A stretch of DNA of 64,000 nucleotides, taken from contig JBEKZC010000005.1 of assembly GCA_049510295.1 (NCBI GenBank), positions 17,546 through 81,545 of the forward strand, in the 5' to 3' direction. Below are positions 1-9,192 of this stretch, one piece after another (position 1 is the stretch's first letter; each line of letters begins with the position of its first letter). The translations under genes and the position numbers were made by a program. This DNA is from Verrucomicrobiota bacterium (lineage in GTDB: Bacteria; Verrucomicrobiota; Verrucomicrobiia; Limisphaerales; UBA11358). The notes below the pieces were generated by a model. The model saw only the letters and a program-made list of their open reading frames with translations. It did no database searches and was not told the origin of the DNA.

Positions 1-1703
1 GCAACGCGAGCCACGAAACGAAAATTGATGCGAGAGAATTAAAATTGGGTGACGACACGATTGAGTTCATGAATCAGGGCATCGCGGACGCTCATACTGT
101 CATCATTCTCTATTCCCAGCACACCCCGAAGGCGAAATGGCAAAATCTCGAAATCAAATCGGCCGTCTGGAACGAGGTTGCACAGTCTGGAGGTGTGTGC
201 ATCGTTGTGAGGCTTGACGATTCGGCAATTCCACCTGTTCTTGGGCCTAAAGTGTATGGAAAGCTGAACGCGGCTGACCCAAGTTCCTATCGAAAGCTAT
301 TGGAAGATTTGTGCGGCGCGATTCTGCCGGGGAAAACTGCTTCTTCGCTGGTATCGGAAGCATTCAAATGTGAATCAACCAATCCGTTCCGTCGCGTCCG
401 GGCCGAGTATTTTGAAGATCGGCCTGACTTGCTGGCAAAAACATTTGCTCCTCCCGATGCGCTGAAACAGGGGGCGCTTGAAGAAATGAAGCCGTGCTTC
501 CTAGAGGGTTCGCGCGGGACTGGCAAATCAATGCTGTTACTCTCCCTCCGAGCGCGTAACTTTCTTTCGCGTCATAAAGGAAATAGCAAGCTGGTCAGCC
601 GTTATGCAACCAATGCCAAGAGCATTTTAGACCCATTTTGCGGGTCGGGGGCAGTTCTTGTTGCGGGGAGTCGAAACGGAATTCCCACGACAGGTATTGA
701 TGTGAATCCGATTGCAGCCTTGCTATCTCAGGTCAAACTCGCCGGGTTTTGTTTGAAAAATGCAATGGCGCTTGCAGACGAGCTTGTGCAAACAGCCCGC
801 AAGACGAAACGGACACTCCCCATTCAATGGGCGGCCAAAGGCTACTGGTTTACTCCGGCCACGTTGGATAAATATGAACGGCTTCGAGCAGCGAGTCTTA
901 ATCTTGCGCTGAACCAAACGAGTGAGGGCATGGCTGTGCTTCTGTCTTTTGCATTATCTGTTCGGCTTTGTTCCAAAGCCGACCAGCGTAGCCCAAAGCC
1001 GTTCATCTCAAAACTGGCAATTGCGCGTCGCAAAGGTAAGCATTTTGACCCCTATCAGATAATCCCGGCCCTTTTGACAGACTTGGGCGAGGCTTACGGC
1101 CCGAACTCTGGTCAAAATAGTTGCCGTTTTTTGTTAGCTGATATGGCTTCCGATGCATCGATACCACGCTTAGTCGGAAAGCACTCGCATGTAATTACAT
1201 CACCGCCCTACATCAATGCACAGGACTACTTTCGGAATTTCAAACTTGAGTTGAATCTACTTGAAGGGGTACTACCTTTTCAAGTGGGCGACCTGCAGGA
1301 GTGCTTCATCGGTACAGAGCGGGGCGATCTCCTCGCGGGCATTTCACTCAAACAAATCCAACAACAGCGTGAACGTGTGCCTCAGATAAAAGCACTCGCT
1401 CGAAAAGCTCCTCGATCAGAAGCAGTTGTCCACCGATACCTGCACGATATGGGGAATGCGTTTGATACCATCCAGAAATGTTTGGAGTACAAAGGCACTT
1501 TCGTGTTGGTCTGCGGAGATAATCTCATCGGAGGATTGCGCATCCGCACTTGGCAACTCCTGACTAATATGCTTGTCGAGCGCGGTTTCAAACTCTTCGA
1601 CACGTTCACTGACCGAATCGAGGACAGAATGCTTGCACCGAAGCGGTGCGGTCACAAAGGACTGATCAAAGAAGAGGTCATTTTGGCTTTTCGATCCAAC
1701 TGA
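1..1703 (+). CDS. TIR-like domain / Walker-A stub / amino-DNA-methyltransferase chimeric protein (5' end off window)
   Basis: The frame is open from nt 3, with no stop before the listed TTG at 45, so the N-terminus lies outside the window. The N-terminal ~95 aa look TIR-like (DTIEFMNQGIADAHTVIILYSQHT..KWQNLEIKSAVWNE..CIVVRLDDSAIPPVL). A P-loop follows (FLEGSRGTGKSMLLL) with no Walker B after it. Next come MTase motif I (ILDPFCGSGAVLV) and, ~190 aa later, motif IV (VITSPPYINAQDY), then a V/VI-like FVLVCGDN. GC looks lower than in the neighbours. Confidence 0.6.
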   Translation, partial: NASHETKIDARELKLGDDTIEFMNQGIADAHTVIILYSQHTPKAKWQNLEIKSAVWNEVAQSGGVCIVVRLDDSAIPPVLGPKVYGKLNAADPSSYRKLLEDLCGAILPGKTASSLVSEAFKCESTNPFRRVRAEYFEDRPDLLAKTFAPPDALKQGALEEMKPCFLEGSRGTGKSMLLLSLRARNFLSRHKGNSKLVSRYATNAKSILDPFCGSGAVLVAGSRNGIPTTGIDVNPIAALLSQVKLAGFCLKNAMALADELVQTARKTKRTLPIQWAAKGYWFTPATLDKYERLRAASLNLALNQTSEGMAVLLSFALSVRLCSKADQRSPKPFISKLAIARRKGKHFDPYQIIPALLTDLGEAYGPNSGQNSCRFLLADMASDASIPRLVGKHSHVITSPPYINAQDYFRNFKLELNLLEGVLPFQVGDLQECFIGTERGDLLAGISLKQIQQQRERVPQIKALARKAPRSEAVVHRYLHDMGNAFDTIQKCLEYKGTFVLVCGDNLIGGLRIRTWQLLTNMLVERGFKLFDTFTDRIEDRMLAPKRCGHKGLIKEEVILAFRSN

Positions 1704-1729
1704 ATAACGATTCAGCCATTTCACCAACT

Positions 1730-1840
1730 ATGATCAAACTTTCCCTTCCCTTCACCGAAGAAAAAATCCGGGCGCTGAAAGTCGGCGACGAGGTGCTGAT
1801 CTCCGGCGTCGTGTCCACCGGGCGCGGAATCGGGGGTTGA
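1730..1840 (+). pseudogene. orphan 5' fragment of the hydro-lyase beta-subunit gene (duplicate of 2885-2981)
   Basis: 97 nt starting exactly at an ATG match 2885-2981 with 9 mismatches. It encodes MIKLSLPFTEEKIRALKVGDEVLISGVVSTGRG, then diverges and stops at 1840. Confidence 0.85.
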
Positions 1841-1844
1841 AAAA

Positions 1845-2324
1845 ATGGAATCAGTTTACATTGAGACGAGTGTGGTGAGTTATCTGGCGGCGCTGGCCAG
1901 CCGGGACTTGATTGTTGCGGGACATCAACAGGTGACGCGTGACTGGTGGGAGAATCGCCGCGCAAAATTCACATGTTTCATTTCGCATGTCGTGCTGGAT
2001 GAGGCGCGGGACGGAGACGCGGCGCAAGCGGCGTTGCGCTTGCAGGCGCTGGAAGGCTTTCCCAAGCTGGCGGCGACGCCCGAAGCCGAGCGGCTGGCGG
2101 TGGCTTTTCTGCAGGGTGTTCTGCCGGTAAAAGCAGCACGGGATGCCGCCCATCTGGCAATTGCCACGGTTGGCAAGGTCAAGTATTTATTGACATGGAA
2201 CTGCAATCATCTGGCAAACGCGCAGATTTTGGATCGGCTTGAGCCGATTGTCACAGCCGCCGGCTTCAAACTGCCAAGAGTTTGCACTCCGGAGGAATTA
2301 ATGGGAGTTTCAAGGTATGAATGA
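1845..2324 (+). CDS. PIN-domain (VapC-like) putative toxin
   Basis: 159 aa. The N-terminus is YIETSVVSYL and the C-terminus is YLLTWNCNHLAN, typical of PIN/VapC-family proteins. Its stop overlaps the next ORF by 8 nt. Confidence 0.7.
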   Translation: MESVYIETSVVSYLAALASRDLIVAGHQQVTRDWWENRRAKFTCFISHVVLDEARDGDAAQAALRLQALEGFPKLAATPEAERLAVAFLQGVLPVKAARDAAHLAIATVGKVKYLLTWNCNHLANAQILDRLEPIVTAAGFKLPRVCTPEELMGVSRYE

Positions 2325-2529
2325 CGATCCGATTGTAGAAGAAGTGCGACGCGTTCGAGATAAACTGGCGCGCCAGTTTAACTACGATATCCACGCCATT
2401 TTCGCCGACTTGCGAACGCGCGAGCGCGTGGAGGACCCGGCTCATCCTCTCGTGAGGGACGCAAGCGAATGGGCGGAAAGCCGGGAAAACGCACTGGTGC
2501 TCCGCGACCAGCCTAAACCGAAGGGCTAG
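2317..2529 (+). CDS. small protein with a DPIxxE..R.KL module (putative partner of the PIN protein)
   Basis: 70 aa, translationally coupled to the PIN gene. It shares its N-terminal module (DDPIVEEVRRVRDKLARQ) and its C-terminal LVLRDQPKPK tail with the next ORF. Confidence 0.5.
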   Translation: MNDDPIVEEVRRVRDKLARQFNYDIHAIFADLRTRERVEDPAHPLVRDASEWAESRENALVLRDQPKPKG

Positions 2530-2536
2530 AATAGTC

Positions 2537-2866
2537 GTGACAGCCGATCCAATTCTTTTGGAACTTGAAGCCGTTAAAGAACGTCTGGCGGCGGAAGCGG
2601 GCGGCGACTCGCGGCGTTTCCTCGATCAGATGGAAGCGTGGGCGGTGGAGCATCCGCACGCCGGGCCGGTGGTGAATTCGCCGGAGGAGTTGCAGGTGCG
2701 ATTACGGGCGCGCGAGGCTGCCGAACCGCCGCCACCGCAGGGCAAGCCGTATCGGGTTTATGATCCGATCATCGCCGAGGTGCATCGGACGCGCGAGAAA
2801 CTCCAGCGCGAGCGGCAGGCCGAAACTTTGATTTTGAAGGACGAACCGCCGCGTAAGAAACATTGA
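2537..2866 (+). CDS. small protein carrying two DPIxxE..R.KL modules (paralogue of 2317-2529)
   Basis: 109 aa. It has ADPILLELEAVKERLAAE at the N-terminus and YDPIIAEVHRTREKLQRE near the C-terminus, and ends LILKDEPPRKK. Confidence 0.5.
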   Translation: MTADPILLELEAVKERLAAEAGGDSRRFLDQMEAWAVEHPHAGPVVNSPEELQVRLRAREAAEPPPPQGKPYRVYDPIIAEVHRTREKLQRERQAETLILKDEPPRKKH

Positions 2867-2884: not shown

Positions 2885-3460
2885 ATGATTAAACTTTCAT
2901 TTCCCTTCACCGAAGAAAAAATCCGGGCGCTGAAAGTCGGCGACGAGGTGTTGATTTCCGGTGTCGTGTTTACCGGACGCGACGCGGTCCACAAGTATTT
3001 GCACGAGGGCGGCAAGCTGCCGCCGGGTGTGAATTTTCGCGACGGGATTCTTTATCATTGCGGCCCGGTCGTGATGAAGCAGGACGACGGTTCTTGGAAA
3101 GCCACCGCCGCCGGTCCGACGACTTCAATTCGCGAGGAGCCGTATCAGGCGCATATCATCAAGGAATTCGGCCTGCGCGGGGTCATCGGCAAGGGCGGCA
3201 TGGGTGACCGGACGCTGGCGGCATGCAAGGAATTCGGCTGCGTGTATCTGCACGCGGTCGGCGGCGCGGCGCAAGTGCTGGCCGATTGCATCAAAAAGGT
3301 GCGCAACGTCTATCTGATGGAAAAGTTCGGTGCGCCGGAGGCCATCTGGGAATTTGAAGTGGCAGATTTCCCCGCCGTTGTCACGATGGACTCGCACGGC
3401 AATTCGCTGCACAAGGAAGTCTTTGCCATGAGCCAGGCGGAACTGGCGAAAAGACTTTAA
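2885..3460 (+). CDS. Fe-S hydro-lyase beta subunit (class I fumarate hydratase C-terminal domain / L(+)-tartrate dehydratase beta type)
   Basis: 191 aa with GPTTSIREEPY and VIGKGGMG..AVGGAAQ motifs typical of the FumA-C/TtdB family. No alpha-subunit gene lies upstream in this window. Confidence 0.85.
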   Translation: MIKLSFPFTEEKIRALKVGDEVLISGVVFTGRDAVHKYLHEGGKLPPGVNFRDGILYHCGPVVMKQDDGSWKATAAGPTTSIREEPYQAHIIKEFGLRGVIGKGGMGDRTLAACKEFGCVYLHAVGGAAQVLADCIKKVRNVYLMEKFGAPEAIWEFEVADFPAVVTMDSHGNSLHKEVFAMSQAELAKRL

Positions 3461-3660: not shown

Positions 3661-5637
3661 ATGAAAAATATTCGTTGGATGGCAGCAGTTCGCGGGTTGG
3701 CCGTGGCCGGCATGTTTCTTTACGTGTTTTCCCGGTTTGTCCCCTGCAGTTCAGTTGATGATTACCCGATCATTGATGATATTGACAACGCTTGGGCGCA
3801 GGCTCTGCATATTGCCTTCAGCCGGCATTGGCAGTTCGGCCAGGACATTGTTTTTACCTACGGTCCTTGGGGATTCCTAGCCAGAGGCTATTATCCCACG
3901 ACGTATCCGGTTTCCGTGATCGTGTGGGTGATGCTGTCACTGGTTTTTTTATGCGCGGGTTGGCGGCTGGCGTGTCATCTGTCGGACAACCGGCTGTTTT
4001 CCTGGCTCTGGTTGATCGGTTTCACCGGCGTGGCCAGCATTCCGGTCGGGAATGATTTTGACGTCCGGTTGGTTGCCTGGGTTGTGCTGCTGTTGTTCCT
4101 GCATTTTTTTGTGGAGAAAGGCGCGTTCACGGCGACGCAGGCCATGCTGGTGGTGTCACTGGGCTGGTTGAGCCTGGTCAAGTTCACCGGCTTGATGGAA
4201 TCCGTGCTGGTGGTGGCCCTCATTGCGGTGGACAATATCTTCCGTCACCGGCGGTTTCCGTGGATTGTGCCGTTATGGGCGGCCAGTCTGCTGGGCTTTT
4301 GGGTCATGGCCGGACAGCATTTGAGTTCGTTCGGGCCGTACCTGAGCAATTCCTGGCAAATCACCAGCGGTTATACGGAAGCGATGATGCGAACCGGCAG
4401 AACGGAAACCTGGGATGTCAGCGGTTTCCTGTTGCTGGCGGTGCTGCTGTGTACGATGACCGGCGGTGTTGCCTGGGCACGCCTCCGGTTTTGGGGGGCG
4501 CTTCCCCTGGCTGGTTTGGGAGGAACCCTGTTCATCGTTTTCAAACAAGGTTATGTCCGGCAAGACCGGCATGAGGTTGCCGCCGTGATGTCACTTTTGA
4601 TCATCTCTCTGGCGTGTCTGGCGCTGGCCGGGCCGGCAAAGGGGCGAAAAATGAGGCAGGCCCTGCTTCTGTTGGCGGGTTCCGTCCTGATGGCCTCGTC
4701 CGTGTTCGGGTACTGGCTCCCAGGCAATGGGCTGTGGACGCAGTGGGCCGGGACATTCAAACCCAGCAACCTGATGGGTCCAGTCACTGGCGTGTTTACC
4801 GGACATTTGCGAAGTGATTACGAGAAAAATCTCGCGACGATACGGGAGGAATATCCCGTGCCACCGATGAAAGGAGGAGCGGACCTCTATTCCTGTTTTC
4901 AAACCATCCTTTTTGCGCACGGGTTGCCCTATCAACCACGACCGGTCATTCAGAGTTATTCCGCCTACACGCCGGAACTGGCCAGACTGAATGCCGCCCA
5001 CCTGCAGACGGACCGCGCGGCCGGCAATCTTTTGTTTGCGATAGAGCCAATTGACGGTCGTTTTCCCGCATTGGATGATGGTCTTTCCTGGCCGGAATTG
5101 TTGACCCGATACGACCTGCGGGGCACTTCGGACGCCTTGGGAACATATTTGTTCCTGTCGCGGTCGGCGGCACCGCGGGAATATCACCTGACCCCGCTCC
5201 AGGATACGTCGGCCCGTTGGGGAGAACCCGTCACGCCTCCTTCCGCCACCGCCGGTCCGATCTGGGTTGAAATTGAGATAAAAAAAACCCTGATCGGGAC
5301 GGTGGTTTCGGCGCTTTACAAACCCCCGGTGTTGGTGCTGACCGTGTCCCTGCGGGATAACGGGCAACAAGACTTTCGCATGGTTCCCGCCATGGCCCGG
5401 GGCGGATTCCTGTTGTCGCCGGTGATCGGCGACAACCAGGCTTTCGCTGCGCTTGCCTCGGCGGATGGACAACGCGACCTGGCCGGCCAGGAAGTGATGT
5501 CCATGACCGTCCTGGCCGATACCCGATCTTATTCAACGATTTGCTATCAATCGCCGATGGCAGTCCGGTTTTACCGCCTGGATTTTCCCCGGCAGGATTT
5601 CAGAATGGACTGGCCGGTGAAACCAGCGGAACAGTGA
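3661..5637 (+). CDS. large polytopic membrane protein with a C-terminal soluble domain, function unknown (GT-C-like architecture)
   Basis: 658 aa. It has many hydrophobic segments in the first ~400 aa and a ~250-aa hydrophilic C-terminus. No catalytic motif was recognised. Confidence 0.55.
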   Translation: MKNIRWMAAVRGLAVAGMFLYVFSRFVPCSSVDDYPIIDDIDNAWAQALHIAFSRHWQFGQDIVFTYGPWGFLARGYYPTTYPVSVIVWVMLSLVFLCAGWRLACHLSDNRLFSWLWLIGFTGVASIPVGNDFDVRLVAWVVLLLFLHFFVEKGAFTATQAMLVVSLGWLSLVKFTGLMESVLVVALIAVDNIFRHRRFPWIVPLWAASLLGFWVMAGQHLSSFGPYLSNSWQITSGYTEAMMRTGRTETWDVSGFLLLAVLLCTMTGGVAWARLRFWGALPLAGLGGTLFIVFKQGYVRQDRHEVAAVMSLLIISLACLALAGPAKGRKMRQALLLLAGSVLMASSVFGYWLPGNGLWTQWAGTFKPSNLMGPVTGVFTGHLRSDYEKNLATIREEYPVPPMKGGADLYSCFQTILFAHGLPYQPRPVIQSYSAYTPELARLNAAHLQTDRAAGNLLFAIEPIDGRFPALDDGLSWPELLTRYDLRGTSDALGTYLFLSRSAAPREYHLTPLQDTSARWGEPVTPPSATAGPIWVEIEIKKTLIGTVVSALYKPPVLVLTVSLRDNGQQDFRMVPAMARGGFLLSPVIGDNQAFAALASADGQRDLAGQEVMSMTVLADTRSYSTICYQSPMAVRFYRLDFPRQDFRMDWPVKPAEQ

Positions 5638-6516: not shown

Positions 6517-9192
6517 GTGAGTATTGAGAAAAAGGAAATTCACGGGTCGGGTGACAAATGGGCGGAGTCGCTGCAGTCCGTCTTCGATCTGGCCCTGGAA
6601 AACCAGGGACCGGAACGGACGGCGCAATTGCTGAGAAAACTCGCCGACCGTCTGCGCGCCTCGCAGGACGGGTTGCCGCGCGGTTTTAACACGCCTTACG
6701 TCAACACGATTCCGCCGGAGCAACAGCTGCCGTTTCCCGGCGACTGGCAGATGGAGCGCCGGATCAAGAGCTACATCCGCTGGAACGCCATGGCGATGGT
6801 GGTCAAGGCCAACTCCACCACCAACGTTGGCGGCCACATTTCCACCTACGCCTCGGCGGCGACGCTTTACGAGGTTGGATTCAATCACTTTTTCCGCGGA
6901 CGCACGGAGAATTTTCCAGGCGACATGGTTTATTTTCAGGGTCACGCCGCGCCGGGCATTTATGCGCGTGCGTTTCTCGAAGGCCGTTTGGACGAAAAAC
7001 ATCTGCAAAATTTTCGTCAAGAACTCGCCGCCGGCGGCGGGTTGTCGTCGTATCCGCATCCGTATCTGATGCCGGAGTTCTGGCAGTTCCCGACGGTTTC
7101 CATGGGGCTTGGCCCGCTCCTGTCCATTTATCAGGCGCGGTTTAATCGCTATCTTCAGGCGCGCGGTCTGGCCAAATGGACGGAGGAACCAAAAGTCTGG
7201 TGTTTTGTCGGCGACGGCGAATCGGACGAGCCGGAAACGCTCGGTTCGCTCACACTCGCGTCGCGCGAGAACCTCGACAACCTCATCTGGGTTGTGAATT
7301 GCAATTTGCAGAGACTGGACGGCCCCGTGCGCGGCAATGGCAAAATCATCCAGGAACTCGAAGCCGCATTCCTAGGCGCCGGCTGGAACGTCATCAAGCT
7401 CATTTGGGGCAGTGATTGGGACGATTTGCTTGCGCGCGACAAGTCCGGCCTGCTCGTCAAGCGCATGGAAGAGGCGGTGGATGGCGATTACCAGAAGTAT
7501 TCCGTCGAGCCGGGCAGCTACACGCGCCGGCATTTCTTCGGCAAATATCCCGAACTGCTCGAACTGGTGAACCACCTCACCGACGACCAGATTCGCAAGC
7601 TGTTGCGCGGCGGCCATGACACGCGCAAAGTCCATGCCGCCTACAAAGTGGCGATGGAGCACCAAGGCCGGCCGACGGTGATTTTGGCCAAAACGGTGAA
7701 AGGCTATGGCCTTGGCGAAGCGGGCGAAGGCCGCAACATTTCGCATCAGCAGAAAAAGATGAACGAGAAGGAACTGCGCGAATTCCGCGCGCGGTTCAAC
7801 ATCCCGATCAGCGACGACGTCATTGCCGAGACGCCGTTTTATCGTCCGCCGGCGGACAGTCCGGAGACAAAATATCTGCTCGAGCGACGCAAAATGCTCG
7901 GCGGCTTTTTACCCGCGCGCACGGTCAATCCCGGTTCGCCGGCACTCGACGTGCCCAAGCTCGATTTCTTCGCCGAATTTTTCAAAGGCTCGAGCACGGA
8001 AGTTTCGACGACGATGGCGTTTGTCCGGCTGATCAGCGTTTTGCTGCGGCACAAGGGTTTGAGCCGAAACATCGTGCCCATCATTCCCGACGAGGCGCGC
8101 ACGTTCGGCCTCGACGCGCTGTTCAAAGACATCGGTATTTACTCGTCCAAAGGTCAGGTTTACGAGCCGGTGGACAGCAGTTCATTGCTTTACTACAACG
8201 AAAAGAAGGACGGACAGATTCTCGAAGAAGGCATCACCGAGGCCGGTTCAATGGCGTCGTTCATTGCGGCAGGCACGTCTTACGCGACCCACGGCGTGCC
8301 GATGGCGCCGTTTTACATTTACTACTCGATGTTCGGCCCACAGCGCGTCGGCGACTTGTTCTGGCTGGCGGGTGATATCCGGGCGAAGGGCTTTTTGCTT
8401 GGCGCGACGGCCGGTCGCACCACGCTCAACGGAGAAGGACTCCAGCATCAGGACGGCCACAGCCTGCTTCATGCCGGCACCGTGCCGACGTTGCTGGCCT
8501 ACGATCCGGCGTTCGCGTACGAAATCGCGGTCATTGTGGCTGACGGCCTGCGGCGGATGTATGCCGAAGGTGAGGACATTTTTTATTATCTCACGCTCTG
8601 CAATGAAAATTATCCCATGCCGCCGATGCCGGCGGGTGTCGAGGACGGCATCTTGAAAGGGTTGTATAAATTCAAGCCCGGGCCGGAAGACAGAAAGTTC
8701 AAGGCCCACATCTTTGGCAGCGGGACAATCATCAACTCAGCGCTCAAGGCACAGGAAATCCTGGCAGAACGCTACGGCGTGTCGGCTGATGTGTGGAGCG
8801 CGACGAGCTACAAACTGCTCCGCACCGACGCGCTGCGGTGCAAACGCTGGAACATGTTGCATCCGACGCAGCCACCGAAGAAATCCTACGTGGAGACGTT
8901 GCTGGCGAAAGAGCAGGGTGTCTTTGTCGCGGTTTCGGATTACATGCGGTTGGTGCCTGACCAGATTGCACCGTGGGTGCCGGGCGGCTTGATGACGCTG
9001 GGCACGGACGGCTTTGGCCGCAGCGACACCCGCGCGCGGTTGCGCCGATTTTTTGAAGTGGACGCGGAATCCACCGTCGTCGCCACGCTCTTCGCGCTGG
9101 CGGAGAAAGGTCTCGTGGAACGACAGCTTGTCGCAAAGGCCATCAAAGATCTCGGCGTTGATCCGGAGAAGATTCAACCGCAAATTATCTAA
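6517..9192 (+). CDS. aceE: pyruvate dehydrogenase E1 component, homodimeric type
   Basis: 891 aa with YFQGHAAPGIYARAFLEGRL, a GDGESDEPE ThDP-binding region, and AceE-typical length and C-terminus. Confidence 0.95.
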   Translation: MSIEKKEIHGSGDKWAESLQSVFDLALENQGPERTAQLLRKLADRLRASQDGLPRGFNTPYVNTIPPEQQLPFPGDWQMERRIKSYIRWNAMAMVVKANSTTNVGGHISTYASAATLYEVGFNHFFRGRTENFPGDMVYFQGHAAPGIYARAFLEGRLDEKHLQNFRQELAAGGGLSSYPHPYLMPEFWQFPTVSMGLGPLLSIYQARFNRYLQARGLAKWTEEPKVWCFVGDGESDEPETLGSLTLASRENLDNLIWVVNCNLQRLDGPVRGNGKIIQELEAAFLGAGWNVIKLIWGSDWDDLLARDKSGLLVKRMEEAVDGDYQKYSVEPGSYTRRHFFGKYPELLELVNHLTDDQIRKLLRGGHDTRKVHAAYKVAMEHQGRPTVILAKTVKGYGLGEAGEGRNISHQQKKMNEKELREFRARFNIPISDDVIAETPFYRPPADSPETKYLLERRKMLGGFLPARTVNPGSPALDVPKLDFFAEFFKGSSTEVSTTMAFVRLISVLLRHKGLSRNIVPIIPDEARTFGLDALFKDIGIYSSKGQVYEPVDSSSLLYYNEKKDGQILEEGITEAGSMASFIAAGTSYATHGVPMAPFYIYYSMFGPQRVGDLFWLAGDIRAKGFLLGATAGRTTLNGEGLQHQDGHSLLHAGTVPTLLAYDPAFAYEIAVIVADGLRRMYAEGEDIFYYLTLCNENYPMPPMPAGVEDGILKGLYKFKPGPEDRKFKAHIFGSGTIINSALKAQEILAERYGVSADVWSATSYKLLRTDALRCKRWNMLHPTQPPKKSYVETLLAKEQGVFVAVSDYMRLVPDQIAPWVPGGLMTLGTDGFGRSDTRARLRRFFEVDAESTVVATLFALAEKGLVERQLVAKAIKDLGVDPEKIQPQII

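Follow-up and report, generated by a model that had tools for sequence, protein, structure and literature searches.

Orc/Cdc6 ATPases fused to TIR domains have been described in mobile defence neighbourhoods (PMC10853773). Here we analyse an open reading frame (ORF) in which a TIR domain, a piece of an ORC/Cdc6-like ATPase and an amino-methyltransferase (MTase) follow one another without interruption, at the left edge of a 64,000-nt stretch of contig JBEKZC010000005.1 (assembly GCA_049510295.1, Verrucomicrobiota bacterium), hereafter the window. Comparison with relatives leads us to read this ORF, with a probability of about 0.9, as the chimeric remnant of a three-gene defence operon, made by deletion.

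When the ORF is set against the TIR-ORC/Cdc6-like (STAND-related) ATPases (PF13676 plus PF24389), its N-terminal 228 residues are collinear and 80% identical, with the TIR glutamate and the Walker A motif present, but the window copy is deleted from before Walker B to the C-terminus, which leaves a fragment. The remainder resembles the amino-MTases of PF01555 and of the PADLOC 'MTase_II' model PDLC03362 in its motifs I and IV and in a similarity that extends throughout residues 23-393, the best solved sequence match being the Thermus putative modification methylase 2zie; it differs from PF01555 in its permuted order, motif I preceding motif IV with a ~190-aa helical insert, and the window copy lacks the LDRYPAKM segment. 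Compared with a cassette of three adjacent genes carried by relatives (contigs L012, L018, L020 and L025-L027), the window ORF comprises the first and last parts and occupies the same locus as the cassette of a further contig, L011, but the window has no CARF gene and lacks most of the ATPase, and the first and third genes share one ORF. The locus also has much in common with the deletion-made pseudogenes and fusion ORFs of decaying defence islands, namely a junction of the microhomology type, the loss of essential domains, low GC content, an island location and, in a sister lineage, the inactivation of the same gene by an insertion sequence (IS), and it differs from them in that its ORF is uninterrupted over 601 codons and may be translated. 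The names of several defence systems were considered for the ORF and rejected: bSEFIR, PDC-S66, mad2/mad8, DS41_1, Sll1717 and DUF1156 gave weak, sub-threshold matches only.

The reading frame and its deletion junction

The ORF lies in frame 3 of the plus strand and is open from the window edge, which cuts its left end, to a stop codon at 1701-1703 (window 3..1703). The missing upstream sequence comes from contig L001, which contains the left end of the window together with the sequence preceding it; a look-up with the exact sequence of the 159-aa protein next to the ORF led to this contig. Subtracting 8156 from an L001 coordinate gives the window coordinate. The complete ORF is a 1,806-nt gene of 601 codons (L001:8054-9859) for a protein of 599-601 aa; NCBI lists this product, assigned to a Verrucomicrobiota metagenome-assembled genome (MAG), under accession MGA2178379.1 and with the name 'TIR domain-containing protein'. 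A conserved TIR start, MKHVFISHAG, lies at L001:8087, 50 nt past the stop codon of the fumarase alpha-subunit gene.

The earlier note on this DNA had described one uninterrupted frame joining a TIR-like segment, an isolated Walker A stub and an MTase, and a Pfam profile scan of the 566 aa of the ORF inside the window found all three parts. The TIR domain, cut by the window edge, occupies positions 3..299 of the plus strand, its first ~35 codons lying upstream at L001:8054-8158. The window fragment matches TIR_2 (PF13676) with E=1e-9 and a score of 39.4 bits (cutoff 28), its aa 3-99 corresponding to profile positions 24-121 of 122, and the full-length orthologue on L011 scores 69.6 bits. The catalytic-type glutamate of the WxxxE motif is kept as WQNLE (E50, nt 150-152); a phmmer search of the PDB aligns this motif with the W..E motif of the bacterial TIR NADases 7uxr, 3h16, 4lqc and 8g83 (AbTIR), and E50 is nearly invariant in an alignment of 32 homologues. 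AlphaFold2 (AF2), run as two separate models (TIR plus stub, and stub attached to MTase), predicts the TIR domain with a local confidence (pLDDT) of 77-89.

A linker at 300..380 (plus strand), collinear with the intact 751-aa homologues, connects the TIR domain to the ATPase remnant at 381..587 (plus strand), which consists of an N-terminal NPFRRVRAEYFED motif, the Walker A motif GSRGTGKS (nt 507-530) and the next helix. The suggestion that this stub lacks Walker B and all later NTPase motifs holds: the match to the ORC-CDC6-like profile PF24389 (E=3e-9; score 36.7 bits, cutoff 27) joins aa 127-196 to profile positions 1-66 of 571 only, whereas intact ATPase relatives cover positions 1-566, and Walker B, the sensor motifs and the C-terminal helical and winged helix-turn-helix region (profile ~67-571) were not found in the ORF by Pfam. 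In tblastn searches, residues 25-228 of the L012 ATPase match window 3-605 at 80% identity, and the remaining ATPase beyond those residues was not found anywhere in the 64-kb window. The stub is modelled with a pLDDT of 38-67 alongside the TIR domain and of less than 50 when attached to the MTase; in these models it is a non-folding leftover that is not integrated into the MTase fold.

The third part (588..1703, plus strand) comprises MTase residues 23-393 and the stop codon, and is 86% identical to the standalone MTase P0002. PF01555 (N6_N4_Mtase) matches it with 29.3 bits against a cutoff of 26.7, in two pieces whose order is permuted (motif I, near aa 197-236, before motif IV), and in PADLOC the stretch aa 200-561 is recognised by models for type II MTases (E=1e-19). 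Motif I (DPFCGSG, nt 630-650) had been placed well upstream of motif IV (SPPY, nt 1200-1211), and so it is; both are invariant in the family alignment, and the MTase core is modelled with a pLDDT above 90. Measurement likewise bears out the lower GC content that had been judged by eye, with 0.48-0.52 in the gene and 0.57-0.62 in its flanks.

The origin of this arrangement becomes apparent from L011, the contig that carries P0002, the best of the standalone MTases among the matches listed, and that is syntenic with the window. Alignment by blastn matches L001 7154-8739 to L011 4933-6516 at 88% identity and L001 8743-9982 to L011 10021-11260 at 83% identity, leaving out an interval of 3,504 nt in L011, which includes an IS element, and of 2,596 nt in the IS-free L012. 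A base-by-base three-way comparison together with blastn places the deletion junction at 583..588 of the plus strand, where …AAATAGCA meets AGCTGG… with 2 bp (CA) of microhomology and in frame. The joint connects ATPase codon ~228 to MTase codon 23, so that ATPase residues ~229-751, the entire middle gene, of CARF6 type, and MTase residues 1-22 have been lost; tblastn finds no CARF6 homologue in the 64-kb window. Ten contigs that were assembled independently from different JGI and ENA samples, and that share at least 99.85% identity overall, all carry this ORF without a single difference, so that the junction cannot be put down to assembly.

The three-gene cassette in relatives

The fumarase alpha-subunit gene (fumA) of L011 is 88% identical at the nucleotide level to that of the window lineage. 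It is followed in L011 by the TIR domain with the beginning of the ORC/Cdc6 part, the rest of the ORC/Cdc6 ATPase, a 315-aa gene, the MTase, an incomplete 5' copy of the fumarase beta-subunit gene (fumC), toxin-antitoxin cassettes and finally fumarase beta itself. The downstream part of the ATPase covers PF24389 positions 137-566, and the MTase has its true start at MMTRLPTRLDRYPAKM, which yields a protein of 393 aa. ATPase, middle gene and MTase are adjacent in all eight contexts with enough flanking sequence (L011, L012, L013/14, L018, L020, L025, L026 and L027), undisrupted in seven and IS-disrupted in L011, and the window is the sole exception. Gene sizes vary little (751-759 aa for the ATPase, 257-315 aa for the middle gene, 391-397 aa for the MTase), and in L012 the trio occupies L012:4742-9137. 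The fusion of a TIR-STAND or ORC-type gene to a neighbouring MTase by a deletion, one of two readings put forward in the earlier note, is what these comparisons demonstrate: the genes are separate in L011, the breakpoints are mapped and the trio is the ancestral gene order and the rule elsewhere. What that note could not see is that the two genes now fused were formerly separated by a complete CARF6-type gene.

The trio spans Verrucomicrobiae and at least one acidobacterium, being present both in a Verrucomicrobiae MAG (L018) and in Candidatus Angelobacter of the Acidobacteria (L020), with MTase identity falling as low as 53%; the MTases of L025, L026 and L027 are 53-61% identical to that of the window. 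Its middle protein matches the CARF6 profiles of PADLOC over its full length (E=7e-26). Restriction-modification genes, AbiE, PIN toxins, integrases and IS elements are found next to the trio, and on the strength of these neighbours we place the cassettes in defence islands. No PADLOC v2.0 or NCBIfam system is matched above threshold by the trio, and a literature search returned no description of TIR-ORC/Cdc6, CARF6 and this MTase in combination.

The ancestral operon, located in a Verrucomicrobiota lineage between the genes for the fumarase alpha and beta subunits, encoded a TIR-ORC/Cdc6-like ATPase of ~751 aa, a CARF6-type protein of ~314 aa and an SPPY amino-MTase of ~393 aa. To judge by what such domains are known to do, the MTase may have marked host DNA, the ATPase may have sensed invader DNA or its state and oligomerised, the TIR domain may have consumed NAD+ or made a nucleotide signal, and the CARF6-type protein may have bound a nucleotide signal. 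A single illegitimate deletion of ~2.6 kb at the 2-bp microhomology welded the first gene to the third, by chance in frame. The resulting chimera should be translatable from the start of the TIR gene, 18-50 nt past the fumarase alpha stop; neither a promoter nor a terminator above shuffle expectation was found in L001 6900-11700.

What the fused protein retains

The MTase homologues make plain what the deletion removed. In an alignment of 23 homologues, with identity down to 52%, the conserved N-terminus MxxRLPTRLDRYPAKM opens every one of the 23 and none carries a stub, so that the stub is not the normal N-terminal region of this MTase family; the similarities to TIR and P-loop proteins, for their part, are real in the profiles. 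The segment LDRYPAKMVxxLA, invariant or nearly so in these homologues, is replaced in the window by the ATPase-derived LRARNFLSRHKGNS, and a profile-to-PDB comparison aligns it with the HPAxFP…L motif directly before motif I in the Thermus methylase 2zie. The region preceding motif I in amino-MTases, where the beta-class enzymes of 2zie type have HPAxFP, contributes to the cofactor and target pocket. To judge from its sequence, the window MTase is probably inactive or weakened, because the conserved segment preceding the S-adenosylmethionine-binding motif I has been lost. Its own start codon is also gone, and there is no in-frame ATG from the junction to motif I, so that the MTase would be made only within the chimera; an ATG at nt 531, inside the stub, is a possible alternative start. 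The SPPY motif suggests an N4-cytosine target, and the homologue P0080 is named 'cytosine-N4-specific' by one source. A Foldseek comparison of the MTase model with the PDB returned generic Rossmann-fold MTases only, with E. coli Dam as the top but weak match (TM score ~0.3-0.45).

The defence function has almost certainly been lost, because the TIR domain has been left without an ATPase or oligomerisation module that could activate it and without its CARF partner. The present ORF would be a translated but functionally dead or crippled remnant, and the deletion looks recent, so that the sequence would not yet have decayed.

The uniqueness of the fusion is established by the searches. In a search with the whole protein, only the P0001 cluster, which is the query itself, covers 100%, and the other 119 matches listed are MTases of 347-430 aa aligned over the C-terminal two-thirds. 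When 1.84 billion cluster representatives were searched exhaustively by phmmer, with 137 aa around the junction as the query, no protein matched across it: matches fall either on the left half, where they are relatives of the ATPase with lengths of mostly 741-797 aa, or on the right half (MTases). None of the matches shares the fusion, and the architecture of TIR, stub and MTase is confined to one cluster (P0001/P0345) and one near-clonal population. Recurrence of a TIR-MTase junction in independent lineages was not found in these searches. The sole other TIR-MTase joint, P0149 on a 936-nt contig, is independent, links ATPase aa 1-101 to MTase aa 128-199 at a different breakpoint and lacks motif I.

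Loss of the TIR-ATPase gene has occurred repeatedly. On L011 the TIR-ORC/Cdc6 gene is broken by an IS5-family element (DUF4096 plus DDE_Tnp_1, L011:~6632-7506), whose terminal inverted repeats (6629-6652 and 7487-7510) are imperfect; the gene at this locus has been inactivated a second time, independently of the deletion. Elsewhere the gene persists as a 215-aa stump with no cassette genes after it (P0144, L017:3756-4403), as a 55-residue TIR piece followed by a D12-MTase-like stretch inside an EcoRV restriction-modification island (P0154, L021:6001-6441), and as a shortened TIR-ATPase copy in an IS-ridden island (P0141, L024:6001-7140). A cost of the effector to its carrier may lie behind the repeated loss. 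An apparent hotspot of truncation just after Walker A, suggested by four proteins that end near SLRARNF (P0125, P0130, P0139 and P0144), was rejected as sampling bias: the search behind it returned short proteins only, the L012 protein of 751 aa not being among them, P0139 stops 48 nt short of a contig end, and the exhaustive search gives mostly 741-797-aa proteins together with fragments of all lengths.

Several observations weigh against a dead remnant, and they are also those that speak for a genuine TIR-MTase effector or modification fusion, the second reading in the earlier note, according to which the chimera acquired or kept a function after the deletion. A 2-bp-microhomology joint would be in frame by chance in one case out of three, the ORF has neither stop codons nor frameshifts, and no contig of the population departs from the others in this gene. 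The catalytic glutamate of the TIR domain and MTase motifs I and IV are intact, and AF2 still folds the MTase core confidently. The ratio of non-synonymous to synonymous substitution rates (dN/dS) against L011, at a synonymous divergence (dS) of ~0.45-0.66, is as low as 0.07 for TIR plus stub and 0.125 for the MTase, compared with 0.05 for fumA and 0.11 for fumC. With L012 and L018 as outgroups, synonymous and non-synonymous changes number 11/7 in TIR plus stub and 25/21 in the MTase on the window branch and 13/4 and 29/20, respectively, on the L011 branch, revealing no significant non-synonymous excess, and no detectable relaxation, on the window branch. A selected chimera might act as an MTase expressed from the TIR gene start within the fumarase operon, an orphan methylase that has shed its costly TIR/ATPase/CARF arm, or as a TIR domain anchored to an MTase that binds DNA. 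As far as sequence comparison can tell, the low dN/dS and the branch counts fit either a very recent deletion or continued selection, and the near-clonal population fits a recent event; variation within that population is uninformative on selection after the deletion, because the gene is identical in all 10 contigs, and contigs at least 99.85% identical leave no time for selection to become visible. Moreover, the architecture is restricted to this one population, the MTase lacks a motif conserved throughout its family, the Walker A stub is a non-folding leftover, the genes are kept separate in 8/8 contexts with enough flank, and the other remnants of the TIR-ATPase gene are clearly dead. We therefore regard a selected fusion as unlikely.

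Two further explanations deserve far less credence still. A chimeric contig, produced in assembly or binning by joining two unrelated genes, could be suspected from the metagenomic source of the data and from a junction microhomology of just 2 bp, but the same junction occurs in the 10 contigs examined (22 read by index), which differ in sample and assembler and derive from JGI as well as ENA, and L011 is collinear on either side of the junction; the chance of such an artefact is slight in the extreme. The opposite polarity, with the fusion ancestral and the three-gene form derived from it by insertion, draws on nothing beyond the formal symmetry of a two-state comparison. It is scarcely tenable given that the trio is collinear as far as the Acidobacteria at 53-62% identity, whereas the fused form has 66 of the 571 ATPase profile positions and lacks the MTase N-terminus conserved in 23/23 homologues. 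The chimeric remnant left by a deletion accordingly stands as the preferred explanation: the fusion is not a new kind of TIR-methyltransferase protein and represents ordinary gene decay in a defence island.

The fumarase locus and the meaning of the remnant

The remnant is flanked by the genes for the two fumarase subunits. The alpha-subunit gene lies just upstream of the window (L001:7157-8035), and the intact beta-subunit gene (Fumerase_C, PF05683, E=1e-56) is found at 2885..3460 of the plus strand. Between the chimera and the latter, a partial 5' copy of fumarase beta, running from its ATG to codon ~32 (1727..1826, plus strand), forms the left repeat of a cassette-insertion site; these 100 nt recur in direct orientation at 2882-2981 with 90% identity, and tblastn aligns FumC residues 1-32 to window 1730-1825. 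Enclosed by the repeats (1845..2866, plus strand) are three small genes of 159 aa (1845-2324), 70 aa (2317-2529) and 109 aa (2537-2866), none of which has a Pfam or NCBIfam match even at E<=1. The earlier note had seen a PIN cassette here; NCBI does name the 159-aa protein 'VapC family toxin', although no profile of the two libraries matches it. The family of the 109-aa protein occurs on many Verrucomicrobiota/Limisphaerales contigs. This three-gene cassette is separate from the deletion scar, and L011 has different cassettes at that site.

The first ~100 nt of fumarase beta (to codon ~32, ending ACCGGGCGCG) are present in two copies in the window (1727-1826 and 2882-2981) and in three in L011 (11164-11265, 11803-11925 and 12750-12850). 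The copies enclose the VapC-like gene and two small genes in the window and PemK and DUF4258/DUF2283 in L011, and no recombinase was found inside the cassettes of either. Codon ~32 of fumarase beta looks like a site-specific insertion hotspot, at which small toxin-antitoxin cassettes would insert within the 5' end of the gene, each bringing a replacement for that end. A further contig, L002, shares 99.985% identity with L001 over the 13.4 kb that begin just before fumA, but only ~89-91% further upstream, with the boundary at L001:~7118; so sharp a recombination boundary suggests a recent transfer of the fumarase and island segment between diverged strains. Directly downstream of fumC, a predicted multi-pass membrane protein of 658 aa without Pfam match (3661-5637) varies in length among near-identical contigs, being 646, 652 or 658 aa long.

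For the study of defence islands, this case argues that odd multi-domain ORFs be checked against their syntenic relatives before new architectures are named. Were the chimera under selection after all, it would offer a snapshot of a defence operon becoming an orphan methyltransferase or a new effector fusion. The cassette from which it derives, found in Verrucomicrobiae and beyond, pairs a modification enzyme with a TIR/CARF module in place of a nuclease, and may constitute an uncharacterised defence system that couples a methylase with such a module.

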